This document shows, one piece after another, positions 8,364-55,615 of a stretch of 61,816 bases of DNA. Below the pieces are notes generated by a model. That model was not told the DNA's origin and did no database searches. It saw only the letters and a program-made list of their open reading frames with translations. The position numbers were made by a program, and so were the translations under genes. The stretch lies in IMG/VR virus record IMGVR_UViG_2740892042_000003, one strand, 5' to 3'. Position 1 is the stretch's first letter. Each line of letters starts with the position of its first letter. The stretch is from a virus (lineage: Duplodnaviria > Heunggongvirae > Uroviricota > Caudoviricetes).

Positions 8364-8449
8364 CAGGTTCAGAAATGGCGAAAGCCGGTCTGCGCGAACA
8401 GAACCGACTTTCAGGTGCAAATCGTAACACACTCATTGCGGGAGGAATT

Positions 8450-9379
8450 ATGGCAAACACTGCTGAGATATTCAATTTTCCAGTGCCGGATGTGGCACAA
8501 AAGGAGCCGCGCGTGGCAGATCTCGATGATGGTTATACGCGCATTGCAAATGAGTTGCTGGAAGCTGTGATGCTGGCCGGATTAACACAGCACCAGCTTC
8601 TGGTCTTCCTGGCTGTCATGCGCAAAACATATGGCTTTAATAAAAAACTGGATTGGGTGAGCAACGAGCAACTTTCCGAATTGACCGGGATATTGCCGCA
8701 CAAGTGTTCTGCTGCAAAAAGCGTTCTGGTAAAGCGTGGGATTCTTATTCAGAGCGGGCGGAATATCGGCATTAATAATGTGGTCAGTGAATGGTCAACA
8801 TTACCCGAATCAGGTAAGAAAAATAAAGTTTACCTGAAAGAGGTAAATTTACCTGAATCAGGTAAGAAAAGTTTACCCAAATCAGGTAAAGGCGTTTACC
8901 CGAATCAGGTAAACACAAAAGACAAACTAACAAAAGACAATATAAAACCTTTTTCGTCCGAGAATTCTGGCGAATCCTCTGACCAACCAGAAAACGATCT
9001 TCCTGTGGAGAAGCCAGATGCTGCAATTCAGAGCGGCAGCAGGTGGGGGACAGCAGAAGACCTGACCGCCGCAGAGTGGATGTTTGACATGGTGAAGACC
9101 ATCGCGCCATCAGCCAGAAAACCGAATTTTGCAGGGTGGGCTAACGATATCCGCCTGATGCGTGAACGTGACGGACGTAACCACCGCGACATGTGCGTGC
9201 TGTTCCGCTGGGCATGCCAGGACAACTTTTGGTCTGGTAACGTGCTGAGCCCGGCCAAACTTCGCGACAAGTGGACCCAACTCGAAATCAACCGTAACAA
9301 ACAACAGGCTGGCGTGACAGCCGGAAAACCAAAACTCGACCTGACAAACACAGACTGGATTTACGGGGTGGATCTATGA
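8450..9379 (+). CDS. O: replication initiator O-like protein
   Basis: ATG at 8450 preceded by GGAGG; contains in-gene iterons; followed by P with 4-nt overlap; C-terminus resembles lambda O P-binding region. Confidence 0.8.
   Translation: MANTAEIFNFPVPDVAQKEPRVADLDDGYTRIANELLEAVMLAGLTQHQLLVFLAVMRKTYGFNKKLDWVSNEQLSELTGILPHKCSAAKSVLVKRGILIQSGRNIGINNVVSEWSTLPESGKKNKVYLKEVNLPESGKKSLPKSGKGVYPNQVNTKDKLTKDNIKPFSSENSGESSDQPENDLPVEKPDAAIQSGSRWGTAEDLTAAEWMFDMVKTIAPSARKPNFAGWANDIRLMRERDGRNHRDMCVLFRWACQDNFWSGNVLSPAKLRDKWTQLEINRNKQQAGVTAGKPKLDLTNTDWIYGVDL
8803..8910 (+). repeat. replication origin iterons inside O
   Basis: four copies of palindromic core acc[c/t][g/a]aatcaggt at 8803, 8851, 8875, 8898 plus one degenerate copy. 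Confidence 0.65.
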
Positions 9380-22536: not shown

Positions 22537-22726
22537 GAGGTTGCCCTGTATTCAGTGTCGCTGATTTGTATTGTCTGAAGTTGTTTTTACGTTAAGTTGA
22601 TGCAGATCAATTAATACGATACCTGCGTCATAATTGATTATTTGACGTGGTTTGATGGCGTAGATGCACGTTGTGACATGTAGATGATAATTATTATCAT
22701 TTTGCGGGTCCTTTCCGGCGATCCGA

Positions 22727-22760
22727 CAGGTTACGGGGCGGAAGGCGCGCGGGTTTTCGC
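22727..22760. other. helper prophage cos site with divergent cosN
   Basis: flanks match lambda cosQ/cosN/cosB (cgggtcctttccggcgatccgacaggttacgggg ... cgcgggttttcgctatttatgaaaattttccgg) but central 12 nt read gggcggaaggcg instead of lambda gggcggcgacct. Confidence 0.6.
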
Positions 22761-22924
22761 TATTTATGAAAATTTTCCGGTTTAAGGCGTTTCCGTTCTT
22801 CTTCTCCGTAACTTAATGTTTTTATTTAAAACACCCCCTGAAAAGAAAGGAAACGACAGGTGCTGAAAACAGGCCTTTTGGCCTCTGTCGTTTCCTTTCT
22901 CTGTTTTTGTCCGTGGAATGAACA

Positions 22925-23470: not shown

Positions 23471-26451
<2,981 letters not shown>

Positions 26452-26528
26452 AACCCTTGCTGCGTCTGGAATGTCGTTTTCCATGCTTTTGATGACCGTT
26501 CATCACCCTTCCAGTTTTTCGCGGTTTT

Positions 26529-26581
26529 GTGTATTGCAATGTGTATTGCAAATTGGCGATCGGGATGGGTGTGTATTGCAA
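26529..26581 (+). repeat. integrase arm-type repeats (left end of island)
   Basis: gtgtattgcaa at 26529, 26541, 26571, directly upstream of island int. Confidence 0.55.
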
Positions 26582-26599
26582 ATCTCTTGAGGGCTTTTA

Positions 26600-27841
26600 A
26601 TGGCTATTGAAAACAAACTCAGTGACAAACTGTTAAAGAGTCTTGTCGGAAAACGGCAGGACAAACAAAAAACAATAGCGGATGGGCGCGGGTTGTCTGT
26701 GCGTGTAAGCATGGTTGGGGGGATCAGCTTTGTTTTTTACTATCGTCTTGGTGGCAGGGAATCCCCTCCGGTATGGCTTACACTTGGTCGCTATCCTGAC
26801 ATGTCTCTTGCAACGGCCAGGCGCATGCGTGATCAGTGCCGTGAATGGCTGGCTGAAAATCTGGACCCCCGCAGGCAAATAAAACTTGCTGCCGAAAAAA
26901 CTATGCAACCAGTGACCGTAAGGGATGCGCTGTTTTACTGGTACGACAATCACGCCACAACAGCCAGAAAAGAGCATGAATATTTAATAAAACGATTTGA
27001 AAAGCATATCTTCCCCTATATCGGTGATATGGCTATAGAACAGTGCAAATTACACACATGGCTTACCGTCTTTGACAGGATCAAAAAAAATGCGCCTGTT
27101 ATGTCTGGTGCAATTTTTCTTGATATCAAACAGGCGTTGCGTTTTTGTCGCGTCAGGCAATACATCGCGTGCGATCCCTTTGGAGATATTAACGTAAGTT
27201 ATGTCGGGCGCTCATCCGGTATAAGGGATCGCGTTCTTAATATCAATGAAACCGCTGATGTATGGTCTTATGCTTACGGTAATAATTTGCTAACTCTGTC
27301 ATCAATATATAACCGAAGAATAATGGTTATCTGCCTGGTGTTTGGTTGCCGACAGCAGGAGGCGAGGCTATCCACCTGGGACGAATGGGATTTAAAAAAC
27401 TGGGTATGGACAGTCCCAAAAGAGCACAGCAAAAACAAGGAGGCTATAGTAAGGCCTGTTCCTGACGGAATAAAACAATGGATCGTTAATCTTTACGCAG
27501 AAACAAAAAATCGCGGTTATGTTGTCGGTTGTGCTTTGCAAAGGGCGACAATAACAGGGGCTGCAAACAGAATATGCAGGCGTCTTGGTCATGATACTAA
27601 TGGCTTGTGGTGCATACATGATTTCAGGCGCACATTTTCCACTACGCTTAATGATATGGGGGCGGATCCTTATATTGTCGAACTTCTTTTAGGTCATAAA
27701 GTGAAAGGGGTTGCTGGTGTTTACAATAAAAGCAGGCATATAAAGAAAAAACTTGAGGTGCTTAATATGTGGGTTAATTACCTTAATACGATAGCAGGAT
27801 TTAACAACAACGTTATCGAGCTTAATAAAGAGGTGGTGTGA
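26600..27841 (+). CDS. tyrosine integrase (P4/PICI-type)
   Basis: 413 aa; C-terminal HDFRRTFSTTL...LLGHK...GVAGVY catalytic region. Confidence 0.9.
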   Translation: MAIENKLSDKLLKSLVGKRQDKQKTIADGRGLSVRVSMVGGISFVFYYRLGGRESPPVWLTLGRYPDMSLATARRMRDQCREWLAENLDPRRQIKLAAEKTMQPVTVRDALFYWYDNHATTARKEHEYLIKRFEKHIFPYIGDMAIEQCKLHTWLTVFDRIKKNAPVMSGAIFLDIKQALRFCRVRQYIACDPFGDINVSYVGRSSGIRDRVLNINETADVWSYAYGNNLLTLSSIYNRRIMVICLVFGCRQQEARLSTWDEWDLKNWVWTVPKEHSKNKEAIVRPVPDGIKQWIVNLYAETKNRGYVVGCALQRATITGAANRICRRLGHDTNGLWCIHDFRRTFSTTLNDMGADPYIVELLLGHKVKGVAGVYNKSRHIKKKLEVLNMWVNYLNTIAGFNNNVIELNKEVV

Positions 27842-27842
27842 T

Positions 27843-28100
27843 ATGGCAATTTATTCTCTTGTTGATGAAAACGATTTGCGCACAATGAAGGACATTGATC
27901 GGTTCATTCGTGAAAAAGAGTGCATAGCACTTACCACGCTGGCAAACTCAACACGCTGGAAAATGGAGCAGGCAGGTAAATTCCCGCGACGTATCAAGAT
28001 CGGTGAACGTGCTGCAGGGTATCGACTTTCAGAGGTTCAGGCATGGATCCGTGGTGAGTGGCATCCTGGATGGAAACCTGGAAAAACAAAACAGCAATAA
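27843..28100 (+). CDS. AlpA-family regulator/excisionase
   Basis: 85 aa; directly after int; AlpA-like HTH region. Confidence 0.7.
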   Translation: MAIYSLVDENDLRTMKDIDRFIREKECIALTTLANSTRWKMEQAGKFPRRIKIGERAAGYRLSEVQAWIRGEWHPGWKPGKTKQQ

Positions 28101-28156
28101 CCAGTAAATAATGCCCCTCATCACGAGGGGTTTTTTGTCTATAAGGTAAAAACGCG

Positions 28157-28735
28157 ATGAATAAAAATATTGCCGTGACGGGCAAGGGGTACGCTCGTCC
28201 AGTGAAAAAATTCTGCGATATTCGTGATCTCGTCGTTCTGCGCTTTGATAGTGTGAACGTTCGTGTGGTGTATCTGAACGGCGATCCGTGGTTTGTTGCA
28301 AAAGATGTTTGTGCTGCGCTGGAACTAACCAATTCGCGTACGGCGTTGCAGATGCTTGATGATGATGAAAAGGGAGTAAATTTAACTTACACCCCAGGAG
28401 GAAATCAGAATATGAGAATTATCTCTGAGTCAGGTTTCTACAAACTAATAGCCCGCAGCCGCAAAGCAACGACGCCTGGCACATTTGCTCATCGTTTCAG
28501 TAACTGGGTATTCAGAAATGTGATACCAGGTATCAGAAAAACGGGGACTTATGGTATCCCGTGGGGTGCATTACAGGATTTTTCCCGCCGTAAAGAGCAA
28601 TATCAAATAAGTGCCAGCGAGAAGGGGAGGGAGCTACAGGCATGTAAGCGCAAAAAGCGTGAGCTGGAGGAAGAAGAAAAAACGCTGATACGTGAATATC
28701 AGCCTGAGTTTTACTTTGGTAACCGCATTCAGTGA
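28157..28735 (+). CDS. Bro-N domain antirepressor-like protein
   Basis: VVYLNGDPWFVAKDVCAALEL... Bro-N signature. Confidence 0.7.
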   Translation: MNKNIAVTGKGYARPVKKFCDIRDLVVLRFDSVNVRVVYLNGDPWFVAKDVCAALELTNSRTALQMLDDDEKGVNLTYTPGGNQNMRIISESGFYKLIARSRKATTPGTFAHRFSNWVFRNVIPGIRKTGTYGIPWGALQDFSRRKEQYQISASEKGRELQACKRKKRELEEEEKTLIREYQPEFYFGNRIQ

Positions 28736-29068
28736 CAAAACAAAGGCGACCGCAAAAGGGTCGCCAGTGGGAACAAGGGAAAACAAAAGCATCACCAACA
28801 ATGCCACATTTGCGGCTGGTGGGCAATGTGATCAGTCAGATTTGGTTCGTTCCAAGGTTTGCAACGAGAGCTTTTTCCTGTGCTCTTTAAGGAATTTCTC
28901 AAGAGCAAACGAACAAGGTGCGAATCTTTCTGATTCATGTTCATGCGCTATATTTTTGCGTCGCCTCTTACGAGTTGGTGATGGTGTTTTGGTTGATTCT
29001 GTGTCGCTCATGGTGCTGTCCTGTAAAGCAATGCGCCTGCGTTCCTCAAACTATGGCGCTGATATTGG

Positions 29069-29374
29069 CTATTCATGCTCTTTGACCTTGCGTCGCTGGA
29101 GTTCTTCACGCGCGACGGTGACGAGTTGCCCGATCTCCTCGGCTGCTTTGATGCCGATTTGTTCGACCTTAGCCAGGGCATCCAGTGACGACACAAGGGG
29201 ATTTTCTCCGCTGCCTTCTGCTTGGCGGCGGGCTATTTCTCCGCGCATGGCGGTTACGATAAATCCGGCATTGCTTTCACCGTCCAGCTTAACGGATTCC
29301 ATCCCTTGCATAACATCTAGTGGGACTCTGACAGTTGTCAGTTGTGATTTTGCGTTTTTGTTAGCCGTTGCCAT
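29069..29374 (-). CDS. putative ribbon-helix-helix repressor
   Basis: 101 aa; N-terminal QLTTVRVPLDVMQGME beta-strand/helix pattern; divergent from promoter/operator at 29436-29473. Confidence 0.45.
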   Translation of the reverse strand: MATANKNAKSQLTTVRVPLDVMQGMESVKLDGESNAGFIVTAMRGEIARRQAEGSGENPLVSSLDALAKVEQIGIKAAEEIGQLVTVAREELQRRKVKEHE

Positions 29375-29435
29375 TTCTGAAACTCCTAATCATCGGTGTG
29401 TTTCAGTATACACAAAAAAAGAAATACAAAAAGCC

Positions 29436-29473
29436 TTGACGTGTGTTTCATGCGCTCATAACATGAAACACAC
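29436..29473 (+). promoter_or_regulatory. sigma70-like promoter overlapped by a 12-bp perfect inverted-repeat operator
   Basis: ttgacg-17 nt-taacat; inverted repeat gtgtgtttcatg (29441-29452) / catgaaacacac (29462-29473). Confidence 0.5.
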
Positions 29474-29564
29474 CGAAAGGATTGTTGAAATACAAAGAGC
29501 AACGCCCCGCAGTGCTGGGAACACATACGGGGCGTCTAACCAACAACGTAAACTAGGAGCCGTT

Positions 29565-29762
29565 ATGGTTGCTGTAAATCATATACCACACCTTGTACAC
29601 ACACAAACGGCCTTTGTGTGGCGTTTTCTGGCACTGAGTGCCGGAGAATCTCAAATCATCCACGTAACCGCCTGGACGGAACGCGAAGCGCGTAGCCGTT
29701 GCCCGTCCGGTTGTGTTGCTGTATTCGCTGCAAAAATCCGCCAGGGAGTGAGTCATGCTTAA
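29565..29762 (+). CDS. small Icd-like protein (host cell-division inhibitor family)
   Basis: 65 aa MVAVNHIPHLVHTQTAFVWRF..., AGGAG RBS; pattern of P4-type Icd-like proteins. Confidence 0.5.
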   Translation: MVAVNHIPHLVHTQTAFVWRFLALSAGESQIIHVTAWTEREARSRCPSGCVAVFAAKIRQGVSHA

Positions 29763-29940
29763 AACCTTCCGTGTATTTGCCCGAGCTGTTAACCCAATAG
29801 GCCACACAATTGGTATCGCTCAGAATGTGAAGGCTGTTAATGTTCAGACGGCTATTGCTGCGGTGAGAAGCGAATCATCAGAATATGGCTTATCACAAGT
29901 CATTATTTCAGCAGTGTATGAATTAAAAGAGGTGCATTAA
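29755..29940 (+). CDS. hypothetical protein
   Basis: 61-aa ORF in island early operon. Confidence 0.3.
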   Translation: MLKTFRVFARAVNPIGHTIGIAQNVKAVNVQTAIAAVRSESSEYGLSQVIISAVYELKEVH

Positions 29941-30131
29941 TGCAGGAAATTACATTACACGAAGCCGCTGAACGTGCGCACCAGACAGAAATTATTTGCC
30001 GCCTTCTTGAGGTATACCCGAACAAAATTACAGATGCTGATATATCCGCACTGGCGAGCCTACTGGCGCGTCTTTCGGGAAGTGTCGCTAGTTTTTTGAT
30101 TGAGGAAGAAAGTAAGCTGGTGGGGGATTAA
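29940..30131 (+). CDS. hypothetical protein
   Basis: 63-aa ORF, tightly packed in operon. Confidence 0.3.
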   Translation: MQEITLHEAAERAHQTEIICRLLEVYPNKITDADISALASLLARLSGSVASFLIEEESKLVGD

Positions 30132-30353
30132 ATGAATACAGAACGGGAAGTCTTTTTTAAATTGTTAGCATGTGCAGAAAGTTCATTAACTTTAAATAAT
30201 TCAGCAAAAGCAATATTAAATATGTGGCTTGATTGCATAAATGACAATGAAGATGCAAATATTGCTTATGGCCTGTTGTCACTTATTGATGAATCAGCAG
30301 AAAAACTCAATGACGCAATAAATAGTGCCCTGCTATCAAATAAGTCGAGTTAA
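30132..30353 (+). CDS. hypothetical protein
   Basis: 73-aa ORF, AT-rich codon usage unlike neighbours. Confidence 0.3.
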   Translation: MNTEREVFFKLLACAESSLTLNNSAKAILNMWLDCINDNEDANIAYGLLSLIDESAEKLNDAINSALLSNKSS

Positions 30354-30370
30354 GTCGAGGAATAAATAAT

Positions 30371-30670
30371 ATGGAAATGAAAAATTCTGGCTTTATTGCT
30401 AGCGGCCCCGCTCGACCTGAATTTATGAACGGCGATATTTACCGCGATAAATACGGCGGCACGGTAACGATTAAAGGCGTGGCAGAACGGCGCATCACTT
30501 ACCGCCGTGAGGGGTATAGCTATGACTGCGTGATGCCTGTTTATCAGTTCCGGCGTGATTTTTCCCTGGTATATGCCGCACCCCGCAGTAAGCCCATCAG
30601 CAGGGAAAAAGCGTGGGGAAATATCCAGAAAATGAAAACCATGATTAACGGATTCAGAGGTAAAAAATGA
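30371..30670 (+). CDS. hypothetical protein
   Basis: 99-aa ORF overlapping primase start. Confidence 0.4.
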   Translation: MEMKNSGFIASGPARPEFMNGDIYRDKYGGTVTIKGVAERRITYRREGYSYDCVMPVYQFRRDFSLVYAAPRSKPISREKAWGNIQKMKTMINGFRGKK

Positions 30671-32418
30671 AACTGGCACCGAACTTAAAAAAACAGCCAC
30701 GCGACAGACTGACAGAGATAATCATCTTTGCAGGTAGTGATGCGTGGAGCCATGCGAAAGAGTGGCAGGAATGGGCGGGTAAACATATTGCCGCCGACGA
30801 TGTGCCGCCTGTCGTGTTGGCTGATGAGCAACTGAAAAACATCACCGATTACCGGATCATTGATGAAGATCGTCAGTGTGTGCGTGTTTACCGCGCAGGA
30901 CATATCACAGAGCACAGCATGACGCAGATTGTTACGTTACTGGCTGTGGCTGGAGTGAAGACCGTACACGAATACGCGGGGATTACTGACACCAGCCCAG
31001 TGGATTTATCCGACCAGTTGCCGCGACTCAAAGAGGAATGCGAGCGTGGGGAAAGCCTGGTGCTTAATCTTCCGACGAAGCAAAAGGCGCAACTTTCACA
31101 GATGGCAGACAGTGAGCGCGCGCAGCTGCTTGCCGAGCGCTTTGATGGCGTTTGTGTGCATCCGGAAAGTGAAATCGTTCACGTATGGCGCGGCGGGGTA
31201 TGGTGTCCGATCAGCACAATGGAGCTGAGCCGCGAAATGGTGGCGATCTATTCAGAGCACAGGGCCACTTTCAGCAAACGCGTGATCAATAACGCCGTTG
31301 AAGCGTTAAAAGTTATTGCCGAACCAATGGGCGAGCCGTCCGGCGATTTGCTGCCGTTCGCCAATGGTGCGCTTGACCTGAAAACGGGGGAATTTTCCCC
31401 GCACACGCCGGAGAACTGGATCACCACGCACAACGGCATTGAGTACACGCCACCAGCACCAGGGGAGAACATCCGCGATAACGCGCCAAACTTTCATAAA
31501 TGGCTTGAGCACGCAGCCGGAAAAGACCCGCGCAAGATGATGCGTATATGTGCCGCGCTGTACATGATTATGGCGAACCGGTACGACTGGCAGATGTTCA
31601 TTGAGGCCACCGGAGACGGGGGAAGCGGTAAGAGTACATTTACCCATATTGCCACCCTGCTTGCTGGCAAACAGAACACCGTAAGCGCAGAGATGACATC
31701 ACTCGATGATGCAGGAGGGCGCGCGCAGGTTGTCGGGAGTCGTCTTATCGTCCTTGCCGATCAGCCGAAATATACGGGGGAAGGCACGGGCATCAAGAAA
31801 ATCACGGGAGGCGATCCCGTTGAAATCAACCCGAAATATGAGAAGCGATTCACGACGATAATAAGGGCGGTGGTACTGGCAACCAATAACGACCCGATGA
31901 TCTTTACCGAACGGGCCGGAGGTGTGTCACGCCGTCGGGTGATTTTCCGGTTCGACAACATTGTAAGGGAGGACGAAAAAGACAAGGAATTACCGGAAAA
32001 GATAGCGGCAGAAATCCCCGTAATTATCCGCCGCTTGCTGGCTAATTTTGCTGACCCTGAAAAGGCACGGGCTTTATTACTGGAACAGCGTGACGGTGAT
32101 GAAGCTCTGGCAATAAAGCAGCAAACGGATCCGGTTGTTGAGCTTTGCGCGGCGCTGGAGTTTCTGGAGGAAGCTCGTGGGCTAATGATGGGCGGTGGTG
32201 GTGACACCGTGAAGTACACGACCAGAAACAGCCTTTACCGTGTCTATATGGCCTTCATGGCATATACAGGAAAGGGGAAATGTTTGAGCGTGAATGAGTT
32301 CGGAAAGGCTATGAGGTCAGCGGCGAAAGTTTACGGATATGAATATATTACGCGAAAAGTTAAGGGAGTCACGCAGACCAACGCAACGACTACTGATGAT
32401 TGCGATGCGTTTTTATAA
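30667..32418 (+). CDS. primase-helicase (P4 alpha/PICI Pri-Rep-like)
   Basis: 583 aa; Walker A GDGGSGKST and D5/P4-type helicase region. Confidence 0.85.
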   Translation: MKLAPNLKKQPRDRLTEIIIFAGSDAWSHAKEWQEWAGKHIAADDVPPVVLADEQLKNITDYRIIDEDRQCVRVYRAGHITEHSMTQIVTLLAVAGVKTVHEYAGITDTSPVDLSDQLPRLKEECERGESLVLNLPTKQKAQLSQMADSERAQLLAERFDGVCVHPESEIVHVWRGGVWCPISTMELSREMVAIYSEHRATFSKRVINNAVEALKVIAEPMGEPSGDLLPFANGALDLKTGEFSPHTPENWITTHNGIEYTPPAPGENIRDNAPNFHKWLEHAAGKDPRKMMRICAALYMIMANRYDWQMFIEATGDGGSGKSTFTHIATLLAGKQNTVSAEMTSLDDAGGRAQVVGSRLIVLADQPKYTGEGTGIKKITGGDPVEINPKYEKRFTTIIRAVVLATNNDPMIFTERAGGVSRRRVIFRFDNIVREDEKDKELPEKIAAEIPVIIRRLLANFADPEKARALLLEQRDGDEALAIKQQTDPVVELCAALEFLEEARGLMMGGGGDTVKYTTRNSLYRVYMAFMAYTGKGKCLSVNEFGKAMRSAAKVYGYEYITRKVKGVTQTNATTTDDCDAFL

Positions 32419-32434
32419 AAAATGGCAATGGTTA

Positions 32435-32670
32435 TCTACCTTGTCTACCTGACTGAAATAAAATACTTTTATTTCAATGTATTAATGCAGGTAGATAACT
32501 ATTTTTCACTGTCTACCTGTTATCTACCTTATCTACCCATTTTTGTAGACAGGTAAGGAGACGGGTAGAGATGAGGTAGACAGCTATTTGGGGCTGTCTA
32601 CCTCCCTGAAACCCGCGCCATTACTGGCCTGATAACTAATCAAGTAGACAAGGTAGACAAGGTGGTGGTG
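32435..32670. repeat. island replication origin iterons
   Basis: more than 12 copies of gtctacc / ggtagac in both orientations immediately 3' of the primase gene. Confidence 0.65.
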
Positions 32671-32707
32671 CACAAAAAACTTTTTAAACGAGGGGGTAAA
32701 AATAAAA

Positions 32708-32965
32708 ATGCACACATCAGGAAAACTGAACAAACATATAAAGCCACATTACCGCGCCCTTGATATGGCTGAACACTGGCTAAGGGTGGCGATTAAGGCA
32801 ATAGACCGCAACGCCGGGGAAGGATACGCGAAAGCACATCCCGAACTGATAAGCGCATTCATGACAACGGCGGCTGCAAACTTTGCCACGCTGACCGAAC
32901 GGGAGATTGCCGAAGCGGAACAGGTGACAACCATCAATGTTAAAACCGGAGAGCAGACAGCATGA
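32708..32965 (+). CDS. hypothetical protein
   Basis: 85-aa ORF overlapping ssb start. Confidence 0.35.
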   Translation: MHTSGKLNKHIKPHYRALDMAEHWLRVAIKAIDRNAGEGYAKAHPELISAFMTTAAANFATLTEREIAEAEQVTTINVKTGEQTA

Positions 32966-33384
32966 CAGCACAGATAGCGGCTTACGGGCGGCTGGTGGCT
33001 GACCCGCAGTTAAAGACCACCAGCAAAGGGACACAAATGGCGATGGCGAGTATGGCGGTTCCCCTGCCGTGCAGCCAGGCAGATGACGGAACGGCGACGA
33101 TGTGGTTATCCGTCCTGGCGTTTGGCAGACAGGCCGACGCACTGGCAAAACACCACAAAGGCGAACTGGTGAGCGTGGCGGGTAACATGCAGGTAAGCCA
33201 GTGGACAGGCCAGAACGGCGAAACGCGGCGGGGCTGGCAGGTTATCGCAGACAGCGTAATCAGTGCGCGAACGGCGCGACCGGGCGGCAAAAAAGGCCAG
33301 CAGGGGCAGGCCACTGACGCACTGAACAGGGCAAAACAACAGTCGGGGAATGATGATCCGTACGGCGATAATATACCGTTTTAA
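32962..33384 (+). CDS. ssb: single-stranded DNA-binding protein
   Basis: 140 aa; OB-fold N-terminus, Gly/Gln-rich linker and C-terminal ...DDPYGDNIPF tail. Confidence 0.8.
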   Translation: MTAQIAAYGRLVADPQLKTTSKGTQMAMASMAVPLPCSQADDGTATMWLSVLAFGRQADALAKHHKGELVSVAGNMQVSQWTGQNGETRRGWQVIADSVISARTARPGGKKGQQGQATDALNRAKQQSGNDDPYGDNIPF

Positions 33385-33595
33385 ATTCTGCAAACAAAAA
33401 GATGCCGGAAAAAAATAGATTTTCCGGCATGCTACATAAATCCCGACCAAAGGAAGTAAATACATTAACACGAATTATCAGCACTGAAGTTGTTACGGCA
33501 TATTTTATACAACATTGCACTTGGTTGCATGTATTCGCATAGCAGACATCGGTAATAGAATATATTCACAATTATTTGTAATGAATGTAAAGAGG

Positions 33596-34643
33596 ATGAG
33601 TATGGTTGATTTATATTCGCCTACACAGCTTGTGCAGGTGGCTAATGCTGAAGATGTGCAAAAAAAAATTAAATGCGTTGTTTACCAGTTTGTTTTTCAC
33701 TCGCTCGGTAATGTTTGAATCGAGAGACATTATTCTTGATACGATCGACGATCCAAATATCCCGATCGCGGCGTTTTGCTCTCCTATGGTGGGCAGTAAA
33801 GTTTCACGAGATGAGGGATACGAATCAAAAACAATTCGTCCAGGTTATATGAAGCCGAAAAGCAGCATTGATCCAAATAAGTTAGCTGTGCGCCCTGCTG
33901 GTGTGTCACCTGAGCAATACAATGCTTTTGGGGCGCGTAATATTAAAGTTAAACAGGCGATTGTAAATCAGGCTAAAGCTATTCGTGCACGTATTGAATG
34001 GCTTGCTGTTCAGGCAATCACAACGGGGAAAAATATCATTGAGGGCGATGGTATTGAACGTTATGAGCTGGACTGGAATATAAAACCACAAAATATCATC
34101 ACTCAGTCTGGCGGTACTGAGTGGTCAGGTAAGGATAAAGAAACTTTTGATCCAAATGATGATATTGAGAGCTACGCAGAATTTAGTGAGGGCGTCACTA
34201 ATATCATCATTATGGGTGGTAATGTATGGAAGAAATACCGTTCATTCAGAGCGATAAAAGAGGCTTTGGATACCCGTCGTGGTTCTAATTCCGAACTGGA
34301 AACGGCCCTTAAAGACCTTGGTGATTCGGTGAGTTTTAAAGGGTATATGGGCGATGTTGCGATTGTTGTTTACAGCGGGCGTTATACCGACGAGGACGGA
34401 ACAGAAAAACATTTCCTTGATCCTGATTTGATGGTGCTTGGCAATACGGCTCTTCAGGGGATTGTCGCCTATGGCGGTATTCAGGATCCGGAGCTAATCC
34501 GAATGGGGCTGACTAAAGCCGAACTTGCACCGAAAAACTATATTGTGCCTGGTGATCCGGCTATTGAATATGTGCAGACACATTCAGCACCACAGCCAAT
34601 ACCGGCCCGCATCAATCGTTTTGTTACCGTTCGCATTGGCTAA
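33596..34643 (+). CDS. gpE-like major capsid protein, frameshifted at an A9 tract
   Basis: AAGAGG RBS and ATG at 33596; MSMVDLYSPTQLVQVANAEDVQKK aligns with lambda E N-terminus, then homology continues in +1 frame after A9 run 33660-33668 (LNALFTSLFFTRS... to end); about 40 percent similar to prophage E. Confidence 0.75.
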
Positions 34644-34652
34644 GGGGGAGCA

Positions 34653-34994
34653 ATGGCTACTCATTACACTGAACTCATGGCTGGCACTGAAGCACTGGTG
34701 ACTACGCTGGGGATATTTTCAGCTAATAAAGGGGTAATTCCTGCATTTACGCCACTGATGCAGGAAGATGCAACAGGTGCACTGGTGGTATGGGATGGTT
34801 CGAGCGTAGGTAAAGCGGTTTATGTTTCCGCTGTACAAATCGACACAGCGAAAAAAACACAGGCACAGGTTTATAAGACAGGTGTTTTAAATGTTGATGC
34901 TCTGAACTGGCCTGAGTCTGTAAAAGAACTGTCGGCAAAGGTTGCCGCGTTTGTTGGCTCAGGTATTTCTGTTCAGCCGCTGGCTCGTGTGTAA
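34653..34994 (+). CDS. gpD-like head decoration protein
   Basis: 113 aa; TPLMQEDATGALVVWDGSS aligns with lambda [21 protein letters not shown]. Confidence 0.7.
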   Translation: MATHYTELMAGTEALVTTLGIFSANKGVIPAFTPLMQEDATGALVVWDGSSVGKAVYVSAVQIDTAKKTQAQVYKTGVLNVDALNWPESVKELSAKVAAFVGSGISVQPLARV

Positions 34995-35005
34995 AGGGGG
35001 ATACA

Positions 35006-35389
35006 ATGCAGAATCATTACAATGACCTTAAGCCAATTGCCGAAATGATGTATCCGGATCCAGCAGTAGAGGAATTAAAGGCTATTGCTGACAAAATGCG
35101 TTTAAGTGAACGCCTTGTTGATATGAATCAGGTGATGGAACTTACTACCCTTAGCCGTCGCACATTGCTAAACCTTGAGGCTCGCGGAGAGTTCCCCGAA
35201 CGCGTACAGGTTACGGAAGGGCGTAAGGCCTGGTATTTAAGTGAAGTGATCGACTGGATAAACAATATTCCTCGATCTTCTGAATATTGCCGCGTACCTG
35301 TCCCAAAAAAGCCAGATGCGGCGCTATGCCTCAAGATTGAGCGTGTACGTCGCAATGCACGGGATGGTCGCTATAAGTTGATTGGTTGA
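35006..35389 (+). CDS. AlpA-family transcriptional regulator
   Basis: ELTTLSRRTLLNLEARGEFPERVQVTEGRKAWYLSEVIDWI AlpA-type HTH. Confidence 0.6.
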   Translation: MQNHYNDLKPIAEMMYPDPAVEELKAIADKMRLSERLVDMNQVMELTTLSRRTLLNLEARGEFPERVQVTEGRKAWYLSEVIDWINNIPRSSEYCRVPVPKKPDAALCLKIERVRRNARDGRYKLIG

Positions 35390-35445
35390 TGAAATTAGGG
35401 CCCGTTCTGGCTGGCGGGTCCTTTCCGGCGATCCGGTAGGCTACG

Positions 35446-35479
35446 GGGCGGCGACCTCGCGGGTTTTCGCTATTTATGA
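35446..35479. other. island cos site with lambda-identical cosN
   Basis: gggcggcgacctcgcgggttttcgctatttatga, preceded by cosQ-like cgggtcctttccggcgatccggtagg. Confidence 0.65.
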
Positions 35480-35590
35480 GCCTTTTTCGGGTGCTGGTGG
35501 TGGTTTTGTTGCTCGCTCTATCTCTATGAATAAAAAGGAAAAGATAAAGCCAATACACCAACCTGAAACATTACTTAAGTGGGGATATTG

Positions 35591-36133
35591 ATGAAATCGC
35601 ACCTGATGAACAAAAAAAACATGGCGCAAAGCTGCCGTGTAAGTGCGACAGCGTTCGACAAGTGGGGAGTGACTCCCGTTGAACGTAAAGGCCGCGAGGC
35701 GTTTTATGATGTTGCCAGCGTAATAGACAATCGGGTTAGCAATGCAATTAACCAGATTACAGACGACAAAGGCGAGATTGATGATGATGAACTCCTACGA
35801 GTCAGGATCAGATTGCTGACAGCACAGGCAGAGGCGCAGGAGCTTAAAAACGAGCGCGAACGCGGCGACGTTATTGATACAGCGTTTTGTATATACGTGC
35901 TTTCAAAATTGGCGAGTCAGATTTCTTCAATCATGGACAGCCTGCCGCTTGCCATGACAAGGAAGTTTCCCGACATGAAGCCGTCTATGCTGGATGGACT
36001 GAAAAAAGAAGTTATCAGAGCCTGTAACGCATGCGCAAAACTTGACGAAAACATACCGCTGATGCTGTCCGATTATCTGATGGAAACTGCCGGAAACGTA
36101 CCGGATAAGTTGCAGCCGAATAAAGATAAGTAA
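35591..36133 (+). CDS. Nu1-like terminase small subunit
   Basis: aligns with lambda Nu1 (NKKQ...; ELKN...VIDTAFCIYVLSKLASQISSIMDSLPLAMTRKFPDM vs ELKNAKESAEVVETAFCTFVLSRIAREISSILDGIPLSVQRRFPEL). Confidence 0.7.
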   Translation: MKSHLMNKKNMAQSCRVSATAFDKWGVTPVERKGREAFYDVASVIDNRVSNAINQITDDKGEIDDDELLRVRIRLLTAQAEAQELKNERERGDVIDTAFCIYVLSKLASQISSIMDSLPLAMTRKFPDMKPSMLDGLKKEVIRACNACAKLDENIPLMLSDYLMETAGNVPDKLQPNKDK

Positions 36134-36144
36134 CGTAGTACGCT

Positions 36145-36426
36145 ATGACTGAATCCGAAATACTGCGATTAATCCGCCGTGCTTGTGGAATCAGCAAGCA
36201 GCATGACGAACAGGCCACGCAGCCGGACAGCGTGACCGCAGATAATTATGTGCGTGTAGTGGCTGAGGTGATGCGCCGTGACGGTATTGAGCTTAACGGC
36301 GTGGATATGCGCAACATACGAACAAGAGTCCTTGAGTTGCTGGCATATCGTCGCCGTTCTCAACAACGGAGGGAGAGCGCGAAAAATACTTACCAGTGGA
36401 AGAAGCCGGAACGATTGCGGCGGTAA
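36145..36426 (+). CDS. hypothetical Arg-rich protein
   Basis: 93-aa ORF directly after island terS. Confidence 0.35.
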   Translation: MTESEILRLIRRACGISKQHDEQATQPDSVTADNYVRVVAEVMRRDGIELNGVDMRNIRTRVLELLAYRRRSQQRRESAKNTYQWKKPERLRR

Positions 36427-36680
36427 CTTGCTGATATTCCCGATAACGCAAAATTGCGCTGGCTGACTTGTTGCATTGCAAAAAGTTAAGCAGGAAGGCA
36501 CGGCCTGTAAGATGGGATGCAGTAAGTAGTTCAAGGCTACCTTGTGCTGGCACGCACAGTTAAGCCGTCGGTGCTGGATATCCCCCACTGGGGGAAAAGC
36601 TGGCTACATCCCTCACATCTGAGGACTGATAACGCGACATTGCGCTGGCTGGCAAAGTGCAAAATTGCACGATGGCCTAA

Positions 36681-36817
36681 CCCATTGATTATTTCGAAAA
36701 CCTGCAATGCAGGAAATCGGGGAAGTAAGCCTAAGCTATTGATTGTTTCGAAAACCCCCATTGGGGGATGTCGGGAAAGTAAGACTAACCCATTGATTCT
36801 TCCACAATCCTCAATTT
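36681..36817 (+). repeat. three direct repeats near island right end (candidate TerS/cosB-like binding sites)
   Basis: cccattgattatttcgaaaacc, gctattgattgtttcgaaaacc, cccattgattcttccacaatcc, each near a G5/C5 hairpin. Confidence 0.45.
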
Positions 36818-37140
36818 GAGGAGGCCGGAACGTCTACATAGCTGCATCGCCGTAATGATGATTCAGCCCACCAGTCAAATCAGCACAGCAACGACAGAAT
36901 AGCCCGACACAGAAAAACCACGAATATGGGGTTTTTGTTATGACATGGTCATGATGACCACTCATACAAAACAGGTAAAGCCCACCAGCCTGATTAAAGG
37001 TTAACCGGAAAAAAGCCAGGTATCCAATCTCGATATGGGGATCCCTATATCGACATTAACGCCCACTAAAACTGTGCATATATGCATAGAAAAAGCATCC
37101 ACCAGCTTTATGACGGATGCCGCTCATCTTATAAATAATC

Positions 37141-37162
37141 GTGTATTGCAGTGTGTATTGCG
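37141..37162 (+). repeat. integrase arm-type repeats (right end of island)
   Basis: gtgtattgca gtgtgtattgcg, same motif as left-arm repeats. Confidence 0.55.
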
Positions 37163-37235
37163 ACTCCTTTAAACGATAGGTCTGAGCATTCGTAATGTAC
37201 TGTTTTTAAATTTTATTTTTTCCTGTCTTTTCATA

Positions 37236-38015
37236 AAGGCGATGTATGCCGCCACCATTGAGAGTGAGCTGGATACGCAGTCAGCGATGGATTTTATTCT
37301 GGGCGCGAACAGTAAGGAGCAGCGGGACAAGCTGACCGGCTGGATTGGTGAAATTGCCGCGTATTACGCCGCAGCACCGGTCCGTCTGGGAGGCGCAAAA
37401 GTGCCGCACCTGATGCCGGGGGACTCACTGAACCTGCAGACGGCTCAGGACACGGATAACGGCTACTCCGTGTTTGAGCAGTCACTGCTGCGGTATATCG
37501 CTGCCGGACTGGGTGTCTCGTATGAGCAGCTTTCCCGGAATTACGCCCAGATGAGCTACTCCACGGCACGGGCCAGCGCGAACGAGTCGTGGGCGCACTT
37601 TATGGGGCGGCGAAAATTCGTCGCATCCCGTCAGGCGAGCCAGATGTTTCTGTGCTGGCTGGAAGAGGCCATCGCCCGCCGCGTGGTGACGTTACCTTCA
37701 AAAGCGCGCTTCAGTTTTCAGGAAGCCCGCAGTGCCTGGGGGAACTGCGACTGGATAGGCTCCGGTCGTATGGCCATCGATGGTCTGAAAGAAGTTCAGG
37801 AAGCGGTGATGCTGATAGAAGCCGGGCTGAGTACCTACGAGAAAGAGTGTGCAAAACGCGGCGATGACTATCAGGAAATTTTTGCCCAGCAGGTCCGTGA
37901 AACGATGGAGCGTCGTGCAGCCGGTCTTAAACCACCCGCCTGGGCGGCTGCGGCATTTGAATCCGGGCTGCGACAATCAACAGAGGAGGAGAAGAGTGAC
38001 AGCAGAGCTGCGTAA
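37236..38015 (+). pseudogene. B: portal protein B, C-terminal 257 codons
   Basis: MYAATIESELDTQSAMDF... matches lambda gpB residues 277-533; 276 + 257 = 533. Confidence 0.85.
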
Positions 38016-53257: not shown

Positions 53258-55615
53258 ATGGCAGCAGTAAAAATCTCAGGTGTGCTGAAAGATGGTGCGG
53301 GAAAACCAATACAGAACTGCACTATTCAACTGAAGGCAAAGCGTAACAGCACCACGGTACTGGTGAACACGGTGGCCTCTGAAAATCCGGATGAAGCCGG
53401 GCGTTACAGCATGGATGTTGAGTATGGCCAGTACAGCGTCACCCTGCTGGTTGAAGGTTTTCCGCCTTCACATGCCGGGATCATTACCGTCTATGAAGGT
53501 TCCAGACCCGGTACGCTGAATGATTTTCTCGGTGCCATGACGGAAGATGACGTCATGCCGGAGGCATTGCGTCGTTTTGAGGCAATGGTGGAAGAAGCGG
53601 CACGCAACGCCGAAGCCGCCTCTCAGAGCGCAGCGGCGGCAAAGAAATCCGAAACGGCTGCGGCATCATCGAAGAACGCGGCGAAAACCTCAGAAACGAA
53701 TGCAGCTAACAGCGCACAGGCGGCAGCGGCCTCGCAGACTGCATCGGCAAACTCCGCGACAGCAGCCAAAAAATCAGAAACCAACGCGAAAAATAGCGAG
53801 ACAGCCGCAAAGACGAGCGAAACCAACGCAAAGTCCAGCCAGACGGCAGCGAAAACCAGCGAAACGAATGCCAAAGCCAGTGAAACTGCGGCGAAAAATA
53901 GCCAGAATGCAGCAGCCGAAAGCGAGAGTGCGGCAGCTGGTTCTGCGACTTCAGCAGCTGGATCAGCAACTGCTGCGGCTAACAGCCAGAAAGCAGCGAA
54001 GACGAGCGAAACTAACGCAAAGTCCAGCCAGACGGCAGCGAAGACCAGCGAAACGAATGCCAAAGCCAGCGAAACTGCGGCGAAAAGCAGTCAGGATGCA
54101 GCAGCTGAAAGCGAGAGTGCCGCAGCTGGTTCTGCAACAGCGGCAGCTAATAGCCAAAAAGCTGCAAAAACCAGTGAAACTAACGCAAAGACGAGTGAAA
54201 CAAAAGCAGCAGCTAGCGAGACAGAAGCAACGTCAGCCGCAACAAGAGCAGAGAATGCAGCCCGGATTGCAGAAGATGCCGCTGATCCTGCTTCTGTCCC
54301 TCCGCTTCCTGATATCTGGCTACCCTTGAATGATTCTCTGGAAGCGATAACAGGGTATGCCCCGGGCTATAAAACAATAACCATCGGCAGTGATGAAATA
54401 ACAATGCCTGTTAATGGCATATGCCAATTTAGCCGGGCTTCATCTGCAACGTATATTGATAAGTCCGGGCATATTACCGTGGCAGGGAATAACGTTCCTC
54501 GTTTTGAAAAATATGGTTTGCTGATAGAGAATCAGCGAACAAACATGTTCGTAAATAGTTTTAATCCTGATGCCTGGAATAAAAGCGGTGGTATATCTGT
54601 AACATCATCAACAGATGAATTTGAGTTTAAATATGGACGTTTCACGGTAGGAAGCGATATAGCAGGAACGACAACAGGGAGAAATATATGCACAGTTGCT
54701 GGTAACAAAGGCATAGATGTGACTGGCGATGATCAGTACAGTAAAGGTCCGTATGTTACCGCGTCGTTCAGGGTAAGAAGTGATCTCAATGTTCGCGCAC
54801 GTATCCGTTTTGAACGGTATAACTCGGAAGGATACACCTTCCTTTGCGACGCCTATTTGTCATTACAGACCCATGAACTACAAATTACTGGTGGCAATGC
54901 CCAGCTATTAACAGCAAACTTTGAAATCGATCCTGGTAGTGGATGGATATACTTTCAGGCAACACTGAAATGTCTGCCAGAATGGGGAATGGTTGGTACG
55001 CAGCTGCAAATTGCAGCCGACAGAGCTGTGGGGTCTTTTGCAACAGGTGACTGGATAGAAGTAACCACCCCGCAATTCGAGTATGGTGCTTGTGCAACTT
55101 CCTTCATCATAACGACAACAGAGCCAGCGACTCGTGCATCAGATTTATGTAAATTTCCGCTGATGAAAAATATGTATACCATGCCTTTTACGTTCATGGT
55201 GGAAGTCCATAAAAACTGGTTTATTTCTCATAATGCTGCACCGCGTGTCATTGATTCAGAAAATCACCAGTCCGGAGGCCCATTTATTATGGGGTTTGGT
55301 TCTTCTGGAACTATTAGTCAGGACGGTTATTCGTATTGCGATATAGGCGGGGCTAACCGACGTGTATATGAATCATGCGGAGTAAGGGATCTCGTTATGG
55401 GATTCAGGGTTAAGGCTGACGGCATGACATGCTCATTTGCAAATAAGCATATAAGCACTGAAACAAAAACAGTATGGAAATATATTCGTGAAGCAGCCGT
55501 GATTCGTATCGGGGGGCAAACGACGACAGGATTACGACACCTTAATGGTCATATAAAAAACCTCCGTTTCTGGAACAGAGCATTGTCAGATACGCAGCTT
55601 AAGGAATACGTATAA
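53258..55615 (+). CDS. stf: side tail fibre protein Stf
   Basis: N-terminus MAAVKISGVLKDGAGKPIQNCTIQLKA... as lambda Stf; long tandem-repeat region; divergent C-terminal domain. Confidence 0.85.
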   Translation: MAAVKISGVLKDGAGKPIQNCTIQLKAKRNSTTVLVNTVASENPDEAGRYSMDVEYGQYSVTLLVEGFPPSHAGIITVYEGSRPGTLNDFLGAMTEDDVMPEALRRFEAMVEEAARNAEAASQSAAAAKKSETAAASSKNAAKTSETNAANSAQAAAASQTASANSATAAKKSETNAKNSETAAKTSETNAKSSQTAAKTSETNAKASETAAKNSQNAAAESESAAAGSATSAAGSATAAANSQKAAKTSETNAKSSQTAAKTSETNAKASETAAKSSQDAAAESESAAAGSATAAANSQKAAKTSETNAKTSETKAAASETEATSAATRAENAARIAEDAADPASVPPLPDIWLPLNDSLEAITGYAPGYKTITIGSDEITMPVNGICQFSRASSATYIDKSGHITVAGNNVPRFEKYGLLIENQRTNMFVNSFNPDAWNKSGGISVTSSTDEFEFKYGRFTVGSDIAGTTTGRNICTVAGNKGIDVTGDDQYSKGPYVTASFRVRSDLNVRARIRFERYNSEGYTFLCDAYLSLQTHELQITGGNAQLLTANFEIDPGSGWIYFQATLKCLPEWGMVGTQLQIAADRAVGSFATGDWIEVTTPQFEYGACATSFIITTTEPATRASDLCKFPLMKNMYTMPFTFMVEVHKNWFISHNAAPRVIDSENHQSGGPFIMGFGSSGTISQDGYSYCDIGGANRRVYESCGVRDLVMGFRVKADGMTCSFANKHISTETKTVWKYIREAAVIRIGGQTTTGLRHLNGHIKNLRFWNRALSDTQLKEYV
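53620..54240 (+). repeat. tandem in-frame repeats within stf
   Basis: repeated units encoding KTSETNAKxSxTAAK and AAESESAAAGSATAAANSQKAAKTSETNAK; one approximately 200-bp unit is duplicated. Confidence 0.65.

Follow-up and report, generated by a model that had tools for sequence, protein, structure and literature searches.

Sequence comparison makes it very probable that the open reading frame at 30667–32418 (+ strand) and the 289 bp region after it, within the 61.8 kb stretch of DNA analysed here (the window), are the initiator-helicase and the cognate origin of a PICI satellite of the EcCICFT073 type. EcCICFT073 is the PICI of Escherichia coli CFT073, in which the Pri-Rep/ori module was described (Fillol-Salom et al., 2018; PMC6092414). 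Its pri-ori fragment replicates a conditional plasmid in E. coli (PMC6092414), its ori is functional when the protein is provided in trans, and engineered cosmids already use the module as a conditional replicon (Brodel et al., 2024; PMC11338833). EcCICFT073 is also the element of this type for which induction by a helper phage has been demonstrated. An iteron origin that comes after a Pri-Rep gene is a published, defining feature of PICI satellites, and with EcCICFT073 a relative of the present module has been tested experimentally. What we describe is an ordinary, already characterised PICI replication module, a functional-looking satellite replicon of a known kind. The satellite layout of Pri-Rep plus ori proposed in the initial annotation is borne out by the PICI context, by synteny with EcCICFT073 and 81% identity over the full length of its Pri-Rep, and by a site-for-site alignment of the two origins. 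The satellite copy in the window would be expected to replicate autonomously.

The reading frame, here called rep, is intact, starts with ATG and encodes 583 amino acids, exactly as first annotated for the helicase; it matches phrog_864 (E = 6e-162). Rep is a relative of the P4 alpha protein, predicted to consist of four parts that are all encoded on the + strand: an N-terminal module of about 130 amino acids (residues 1–135, 30667–31071), a D5_N linker domain (residues 152–281, 31120–31509; PF08706, E = 2e-15), an SF3 hexameric helicase with its ATPase core at residues 315–416 (31609–31914; Pfam DUF5906, E = 6e-10) and a C-terminal winged-helix origin-binding domain (residues 487–578, 32125–32400). 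The ATPase core contains a Walker A motif GDGGSGKS at residues 316–323 (31612–31635), a motif C ATNN at residue 405 and an RRR motif at residue 422. The winged-helix domain matches the origin-binding domain of P4 (PDB entry 1KA8, E = 2.3e-7) and Pfam Pox_D5. Helicase and winged-helix domain together align with residues 321–762 of P4 alpha (41% identity over 443 amino acids, E = 5e-116); the linker, the SF3 helicase and the origin-binding domain are all homologous to their P4 counterparts. The TIGR01613 score of 104.9 bits is slightly below the cut-off of 108.7. Compared with the EcCICFT073 protein the helicase core is nearly identical, whereas the N-terminal 135 residues are only some 40–45% identical.

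The origin occupies the 289 bp between rep and the next gene (32419–32707). The first core, TCTACC at 32435–32440, starts 17 bp past the rep stop codon, in line with the earlier statement that the repeats begin within 20 bp of the gene. The same annotation counted more than a dozen copies of gtctacc/ggtagac in both orientations. Both orientations are indeed present, and the dozen holds for the TCTAC core (12 copies, six per strand, spanning 32435–32657) without the 'more than'; the TCTACC hexamer occurs ten times in the array and the exact heptamer GTCTACC/GGTAGAC only five times. The sites share the consensus T(R)TCTACC. Of the 15 TCTACC hexamers of the window, ten fall within a span of 233 bp, against an expectation of 0.019 (Poisson P = 1.6e-24), and the density of TCTAC is 41.5 per kb in ori versus 0.5 per kb in the remainder of the window. 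No other 289 bp stretch of the window has an equal hexamer count, and in shuffles of the ori region the maximum averaged 2.9 copies and never exceeded seven.

The sites are arranged about a dyad centred near 32546, with start coordinates that sum to 65088 in five of the six mirror pairs (>> [AT] < >>> on the left of the centre and <<< > [GC] << on its right). A left outer pair on the + strand (32435–32449), with TCTACC at 32435 and 32444, 9 bp apart, is invariant in the five E. coli origins compared. It is followed by a 40 bp spacer with 80% AT (32450–32489) that includes a 10 bp palindrome and is the probable melting site, by a single inverted iteron GGTAGA (32490–32495, − strand) and by an inner triplet on the + strand (32512–32537; TCTACC at 32512, 32523 and 32532, with spacings of 11 and 9). 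Beyond the centre lie an inner inverted triplet on the − strand (32544–32580), made up of an imperfect TGTAGA at 32544 and GGTAGA at 32564 and 32575, and a single + strand iteron (32597–32602) that mirrors the 32490 site. The right spacer holds a GC-rich block, CTGAAACCCGCGCCATTACTGGCCTG (32605–32632), which is nearly invariant in the alignment columns of E. coli PICI origins, and the array is closed by a right outer pair on the − strand (32643–32657), with an imperfect AGTAGA at 32643 and GGTAGA at 32652, again 9 bp apart. A 44-residue reading frame that runs across the repeats (32422–32556) was rejected as a gene, since in CFT073 it is closed after 14 codons. A conserved single-strand hairpin of the left arm was likewise dropped, being strong here (z = −6.2) and weak in relatives.

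The origins of the CFT073, Nissle, O157 and cf-PICI elements align site for site with the one described here. Among the five E. coli origins, 75% of the iteron-core columns are invariant versus 34% of the other ori columns (Fisher P = 6e-9), and the spacing 9, 47, 21, 11, 9 ... 11, 21, 47, 9 is identical in CFT073, Nissle and Shigella flexneri. More diverged rep genes carry other repeats at the same position: TGTTCAC (ten copies) in Serratia, TGTTCAT (ten copies) in Morganella and TTGTCCC (six copies) in E. albertii. An AT-rich stretch is found at the equivalent place in CFT073, Serratia, Morganella and the P4 ori. The C-terminal domains of the Rep relatives cluster by repeat type; this covariation of binding domain and repeat comprises two or three independent repeat classes, and it rests on few lineages because the scan of genome contigs gave four loci. 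Relatives hold the geometry and vary the repeat together with the winged-helix domain, which is useful for the design of orthogonal conditional replicons.

EcCICFT073 shares the gene order (DUF4222, rep, a 288 bp ori, a small ORF, SSB, capsid and decoration) as well as the TCTACC core at equal positions and spacing. It differs in the base flanking the iteron (TTATCTACC/TTGTCTACC here, CTGTCTACC/CTATCTACC in CFT073), lacks the extra imperfect inner site at 32544 and resides at a chromosomal site between roxA and phoQ, whereas the present satellite sits in a prophage portal gene. In P4, with sites taken from its GenBank record, an iteron cluster (crr) also directly follows the gene, and 8 bp sites in both orientations likewise surround an AT-rich spacer. 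The P4 ori reads <<< > [AT] << with spacings of 10, 11, 22, 43 and 10 and an 83% AT spacer, and so matches one half of the origin here in site order and spacing (9, 11, 21, 47 and 9). The P4 sites are, however, type I iterons of sequence TGTTCACC and are divided between ori and crr, which lie 4.5 kb from each other. Neither that repeat nor that separation is found here; the site grammar is common to both, with two half-origins placed head to head in one 230 bp dyad. The SaPI Rep (PriRep5) of Staphylococcus aureus is, as predicted here, an SF3 helicase-initiator that loads itself and carries a winged-helix domain at its C-terminus, and its ori has 6–12 penta- or hexanucleotide iterons in both orientations with an AT-rich centre right downstream of rep (PMC9371898). 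The similarity to SaPI Rep is distant and limited to the ATPase region (PDB entry 7OLA, residues 194–441, E = 4e-14); the SaPI iteron sequences are unrelated to TCTACC and the primase arrangement is unlike that of Rep.

Classical iteron plasmids (pSC101, F, R6K and RK2) carry DnaA boxes and 17–22 bp direct repeats that all point the same way, and their Rep is no helicase and relies on host DnaA and DnaB. A DnaA-dependent origin of this kind was rejected here because no DnaA box, IHF consensus, GATC or oriC-type 13-mer was found in the ori region; moreover, the 6–8 bp core occurs in both orientations and Rep is an SF3 helicase. SV40 large T antigen and papillomavirus E1 are SF3 initiators that act on short dyad sites and load as two opposed hexamers. 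By analogy, and as far as site geometry goes, the dyad suggests the same logic here.

The following model can be put together. Following induction and excision of the satellite, the winged-helix domains would bind the twelve T(R)TCTACC sites, and since these form an exact dyad, two helicase rings would assemble in opposite orientation, probably as a double hexamer. The AT-rich spacer would then melt and the rings would unwind outward. [quoted passage not shown] The imperfect sites TGTAGA and AGTAGA may not be bound by Rep, and the GC block is without a role in this model. The support gathered here consists of homology, site statistics and the conservation of the sites and their geometry, and the dyad of two P4-ori-like halves offers a concrete geometry for loading two opposed helicase rings.

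E. coli A0 34/86 carries the complete satellite, a helper-embedded PICI of 10.8 kb (26392–37248, + strand), inside a lambdoid prophage, whose portal gene it splits into halves at 25570–26404 and 37236–38015. The satellite is bounded by att cores AAGGCGATTTATG (26392–26404) and AAGGCGATGTATG (37236–37248), of the form AAGGCGAT(T/G)TATG. RefSeq annotation (26405–37235) and PHROG matches give an island in the 10–20 kb range with int and alpA at its left and all genes in one direction, from which lysis and tail genes are absent; the contents are int (26600–27841), alpA-like, BRO-N, Icd-like, DUF4222, rep, SSB, capsid, decoration and TerS-like genes. A small conserved ORF (85 amino acids, phrog_1231) and the SSB gene (140 amino acids), together at 32708–33384 (+ strand), form the remainder of the replication zone. 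The int product matches generic integrase families only. Location within and co-orientation with the portal gene (the lambda B cognate), and the zone order integration, Bro, replication and late, agree with the helper-embedded PICIs of Tommasini, Mageeney & Williams (2023; PMC10111431), and no difference from these was found. The att block aaggcgat is present, and the available part of the supplement to PMC10111431 gives it as the identity block of site B:Phage_portal_2:241; the A0 34/86 record (CP120567) was not found in that part of the supplementary text. The icd prophage of CFT073 served as a diverged reference with an intact portal, and EcCICFT073 lies one region upstream of it. Region 30300–33400 had no match at megablast level in a collection of deposited phage genomes, and no Rfam family passed its threshold when the whole satellite was scanned; the P4 CI/isrK-type RNAs that have been reported from other PICIs were among those not found.

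The array is embedded in an operon whose genes all run in one direction, and it immediately precedes the ribosome-binding site of the next gene, as would suit operator sites for Rep or for an AlpA-like/HTH regulator that mainly control transcription from rep into the SSB, capsid and packaging genes. Initiator proteins often autoregulate via their own iterons, and a secondary regulatory role of the array may exist. As the main function, however, we give operator control a very slim chance: a scan of 32300–32800 found no promoter-like or terminator-like site, the adjoining protein has a homologue of the origin-binding domain of P4, the AT-rich spacer and the dyad geometry are features of origins, and the CFT073 array is needed in cis for replication (PMC6092414, PMC11338833). 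That the repeats serve packaging or integration, as terminase-binding cos/pac sites or integrase arm sites, is next to impossible, even though in satellites sites of either kind likewise consist of short repeats. The integrase arm-type repeats have another sequence, GTGTATTGCAA, and lie beside the att sites (26528–26583 and 37151), while a cos-like stretch is found elsewhere (35414–35490) and shares 84% identity with the cos region that lies upstream of TerS in the prophage; TCTACC is absent from either place.

The interrupted portal gene of the host prophage, together with the many degraded prophage regions of E. coli, could point to a decayed, non-functional replicon in a satellite trapped in a defective prophage. 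We consider this highly unlikely. Rep is of full length with its Walker A, motif C and arginine motifs intact, every conserved iteron position is present, and int, the att cores and the arm repeats are likewise intact. The ori occurs at at least 99% identity in 75 genomes, and the occupied portal::int junction is seen in 64 genomes, with the intact portal allele in 3117. Helper-embedded PICIs moreover normally interrupt the portal gene, and do so reversibly (PMC10111431).

Although the SF3 domain upholds the helicase half of the name primase-helicase given initially, the primase half is not supported by the sequence. P4 alpha residues 1–320 form a zinc-ribbon and Toprim primase region that is absent here: a Pfam scan of Rep residues 1–136 found neither a zinc ribbon nor a Toprim domain even at E ≤ 10, whereas in both P4 alpha and the Morganella relative the same scan identifies Zn_Ribbon_Prim (E = 7e-19) and Toprim_3 (E = 1e-13). 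By BLASTP and hhalign the N-terminal module shows no sequence homology to the primase region of P4, and when its profile is aligned with P4 alpha by hhalign the D5_N linker alone aligns. The module is α/β and appears to contain no conserved acidic residues; a fold search against a library of viral structures returned Toprim-labelled matches that were all weak. The zinc-ribbon and Toprim domains of P4 alpha are replaced here by a 130-residue module with a weak Toprim-like fold. Primase activity of Rep is putative and unproven, the label having no backing in the sequence. The priming of these satellites, with an annotated 'primase' that lacks the P4 alpha primase domains, becomes a tractable question.

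It is a realistic possibility, put forward tentatively, that the 'Pri' of enterobacterial PICI Pri-Rep proteins is no primase and that residues 1–135 are a non-catalytic, Toprim-derived adaptor module. If so, primers would come from a recruited host or helper primase or from transcripts reading through ori, in contrast to P4, where the alpha protein is self-sufficient. The module occurs in only about 130 protein clusters among 1.84 billion representatives, always at the extreme N-terminus, and is joined to at least four unrelated initiator ATPases (D5/SF3, DUF927, AAA_25 and VapE-like). At every locus examined it is accompanied by a translationally coupled DUF4222 protein. In the window, the gene for this protein (30371–30670, + strand; 99 amino acids, Pfam DUF4222, E = 9e-24) is coupled to rep through an ATGA at 30667–30670, in which the rep start codon overlaps its stop codon. 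The arrangement recurs in the Nissle, O157, cf-PICI and CFT073 elements, and in E. albertii DUF4222 lies upstream of a DUF927-type initiator; DUF4222 is a constant companion of the initiator.

The open reading frame at 30667..32418 on the plus strand encodes the 583-residue protein proposed in the initial annotation, and its ATG and the stop codon of an upstream 99-residue DUF4222 gene (30371–30670) overlap as ATGA. Four parts can be recognised in this Rep protein: an N-terminal module (residues 1–135; 30667–31071), a D5_N linker domain (residues 152–281, Pfam), an SF3 helicase ATPase (residues 315–416, DUF5906; Walker A GDGGSGKS at 316, motif C ATNN at 405 and RRR at 422) and a C-terminal region (residues 487–578). 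The helicase region matches PDB entry 7OLA, deposited as a 'DNA primase' chain (E = 4e-14), while the C-terminal region matches PDB entry 1KA8 (E = 2.3e-7), which was deposited as a putative P4-specific DNA primase and which we take to be the origin-binding winged-helix domain of the phage P4 initiator alpha. Residues 137–578 are 41% identical to residues 321–762 of P4 alpha. Compared with Pri-Rep of EcCICFT073, the characterised PICI of E. coli CFT073, Rep is 81% identical overall, with a nearly identical helicase core and ∼86% identity over the C-terminal 125 residues, whereas conservation drops sharply in the first ∼135 residues. This identity and the position of rep inside a 10.8 kb PICI (26392–37248, from RefSeq annotation with PHROG and Pfam scans) bear out the proposed satellite layout of Pri-Rep plus origin.

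The 289 bp intergenic region downstream of rep (32419–32707) contains 12 copies of a TCTAC core, six per strand, spanning 32435–32657. The first core begins 17 bp past the stop codon, within the 20 bp originally claimed. Ten of the 12 read TCTACC and nine fit TRTCTACC. The repeats are indeed dense and present on both strands, but the more than a dozen copies of GTCTACC/GGTAGAC initially reported come down to these twelve cores, only five of which carry the exact heptamer. The entire 61.8 kb window has 15 TCTACC hexamers, and ten of them crowd into 233 bp against an expectation of 0.019 (Poisson P = 1.6e-24). No other 289 bp stretch of the window attains the 6-mer count of the origin, and upon shuffling of the origin region the maximum for any 6-mer is seven copies.

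From left to right the sites are oriented >> < >>> <<< > <<, with start-to-start spacings of 9, 47, 21, 11, 9, 13, 20, 11, 21, 47 and 9 bp. The start coordinates of mirror-image sites sum to 65088 in five of the six pairs, which makes the array an exact dyad about a centre near 32546; the remaining pair, the right member of which is imperfect, is off by 11 bp. Set against the helical repeat, as had been suggested, same-orientation neighbours lie 9–11 bp apart (about one turn) and divergent pairs 21 bp apart (about two turns). In the GenBank record of P4, type-1 repeats TGTTCACC are annotated in ori and in crr directly after alpha. The sites of P4 ori are ordered <<< > [83% AT spacer] << with spacings of 10, 11, 22, 43 and 10 bp. 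The AT-containing half of the satellite origin, read on the other strand, has spacings of 9, 11, 21, 47 and 9 bp and thus the same grammar, from which it follows that the satellite origin corresponds to a head-to-head fusion of two P4-ori-like halves.

The left 47 bp spacer is 80% AT, compared with 51% for the right spacer and 47% for the rep gene. The origin region is devoid of DnaA boxes, IHF consensus sites and GATC. As single-stranded DNA, the left arm (32425–32505) folds into a hairpin of −15 kcal/mol (z = −6.2) that takes in a 10 bp AT palindrome of the spacer, and folding is weaker for the corresponding arms of relatives (z = −1.3 to −3.8). The right spacer contains a GC-rich block, CTGAAACCCGCGCCATTACTGGCCTG (32605–32632), that hardly varies among five E. 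coli PICI origins, in contrast to their other spacer bases, and that the origins of Serratia and Morganella lack.

In a five-way alignment of origins, 54 of 72 iteron-core columns are invariant compared with 54 of 161 other columns (Fisher P = 6e-9), or 31 of 133 when the GC-rich block is left out. The site spacings recur unchanged in CFT073, Nissle and S. flexneri. In more distant relatives, the corresponding position immediately downstream of the gene is taken by a different short repeat, with ∼10 copies on both strands flanking an AT-rich spacer: TGTTCAC (∼10 sites) in Serratia aquatilis (L008, 7768–8110), the protein of which is 52% identical to Rep, and TGTTCAT (∼10 sites) after an alpha-like protein of Morganella morganii (L009, 7351–7640). 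The repeat TTGTCCC likewise follows an E. albertii initiator with a DUF927 ATPase that has only the N-terminal module in common with Rep. The Serratia and Morganella sites are almost the P4 type-1 iteron, and the C-terminal domains of these TGTTCA-type proteins cluster with P4 alpha (45–48% identity). They are only 30–36% identical to those of the TCTACC type, which are 85–96% identical among themselves. At the N-terminus, the PICI-type module is present in the Serratia protein and the P4-type zinc-ribbon/Toprim primase in the Morganella protein; N-terminus and iteron specificity therefore assort independently.

Of the label 'primase-helicase', the helicase half stands through the SF3 match, whereas residues 1–136 match neither Zn_Ribbon_Prim nor Toprim_3, even at E ≤ 10. 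P4 alpha and the Morganella relative, in contrast, score strongly for both in their first ∼320 residues. A profile of the N-terminal module aligns with P4 alpha only through the D5_N linker. This profile retrieves only 132 members from 1.84 billion representative proteins, in all of which the module is at the extreme N-terminus. In 26 full-length members it is followed by D5_N/SF3 (14), DUF927 (10), AAA_25 (1) or a VapE-like domain (1), and only Gly23, Ala26 and Leu56 are invariant. The module has a weak Toprim-like fold, and no acidic pair is conserved among its members where Toprim has Glu and DxD. We read the module as Toprim-derived but probably not catalytic. The assignment of Rep as a helicase-initiator is unaffected by the primase question. 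The overlap of a DUF4222 gene with the initiator start recurs in further E. coli PICIs and at the E. albertii locus with the DUF927-type initiator (L010, 5717–6004), and the DUF4222 product may be a partner of the module.

Neither the feature nor its layout and function are new, and experimental support exists in the 81% identical relative. Our analysis contributes homology, site statistics and the conservation of sites and geometry. In EcCICFT073, protein plus origin suffices for replication in E. coli (PMC6092414, PMC11338833): a pri-ori fragment kept a temperature-sensitive plasmid at the restrictive temperature, deletion of rep or ori prevented or reduced plasmid maintenance, and deletion of pri-rep from the island lowered transfer ∼100-fold (PMC6092414). 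A cosmid with only this kind of origin needed the CFT073 protein in trans to replicate (PMC11338833). One deletion primer of PMC6092414 runs through the first two CFT073 iterons, so the published ori lies in exactly this intergenic region; the iterons of several E. coli PICIs are drawn there as two sets either side of an AT-rich region. In a limited literature search, we did not find stated the exact dyad of two P4-ori-like halves, the conserved GC-rich block (32605–32632) or the non-canonical N-terminal module common to four initiator families; these points leave the classification unchanged.

That the repeats serve regulation alone is unlikely: the CFT073 system requires them in cis for replication, and the origin region contains no promoter-like or terminator-like sites. 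Decay of the replication module to a remnant is also unlikely in view of its intact motifs and sites, the undamaged att ends and the many near-identical copies. A reading of the repeats as packaging or integrase sites is excluded by the different positions and sequences of those sites. In the proposed mechanism of replication, the winged-helix domains would bind the twelve iterons and two hexamers would assemble on the dyad in opposite orientation. The AT-rich left spacer would then melt and the rings unwind outwards, with the satellite SSB coating the strands and a host polymerase extending them; concatemers would be packaged via a cos-like site at 35414–35490. In SaPI Reps, the C-terminal winged-helix domain binds iterons, and origin binding is ATP-independent (PMC9371898).

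The window is 100% identical to the chromosome of E. coli A0 34/86 (NZ_CP120567.1). The island starts with a tyrosine integrase (26600–27841) and an AlpA-like HTH protein, followed by a BRO-N protein, a YlcI/YnfO-family gene in opposite orientation, an Icd-like protein, three small ORFs, DUF4222, rep, a small ORF and SSB, and ends with a major capsid protein, a decoration protein, an HTH protein and a TerS-like protein. It splits, in the same orientation, the portal gene of a lambdoid prophage (first half to 26404, second from 37236) and is flanked by 13 bp att cores, AAGGCGATTTATG and AAGGCGATGTATG, with shared form AAGGCGAT(T/G)TATG. The repeat GTGTATTGCAA, probably an integrase arm-binding site, adjoins both ends, three times between attL and int (26528–26583) and once near attR (37151–37161). 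Using the two island flanks joined as a synthetic query, the uninterrupted site with an intact portal allele was found in 3117 of 5426 complete E. coli genomes; the occupied portal::int junction occurs in 64. This location too is already published, as a helper-embedded PICI (HE-PICI; PMC10111431), the supplement of which lists site B:Phage_portal_2:241 with identity block 'aaggcgat'.

Within the same 5426 genomes, the rep-to-SSB stretch is matched in 1760 and the C-terminus-plus-ori stretch in 571 (75 at ≥99%, most others at 72–79%). The replication module is common to satellites of different types at different chromosomal sites: its carriers include Nissle 1917 (beside tRNA-Pro), O157:H7 (between cspD and clpS), the capsid-forming PICI of strain 2011C-4315 and CFT073.

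A 77 bp stretch of the satellite (35414–35490) is 84% identical to the prophage sequence at 22704–22780, just upstream of the small terminase gene; both copies precede a TerS-type gene, and the satellite copy is probably the cos site used for its packaging. A lambda-type origin is present in the surrounding prophage itself, with five ∼18 bp palindromic repeats (TTACCyGAATCAGGTAA; 8801–8917) inside a replication-protein-O-like gene (8360–9379), followed by an A-rich stretch. Third in local repeat density within the window, behind the two origins, comes the tail-fibre region (∼53801–54090), where the 6-mer AGCGAA occurs eight times, both strands counted, within one 289 bp stretch.
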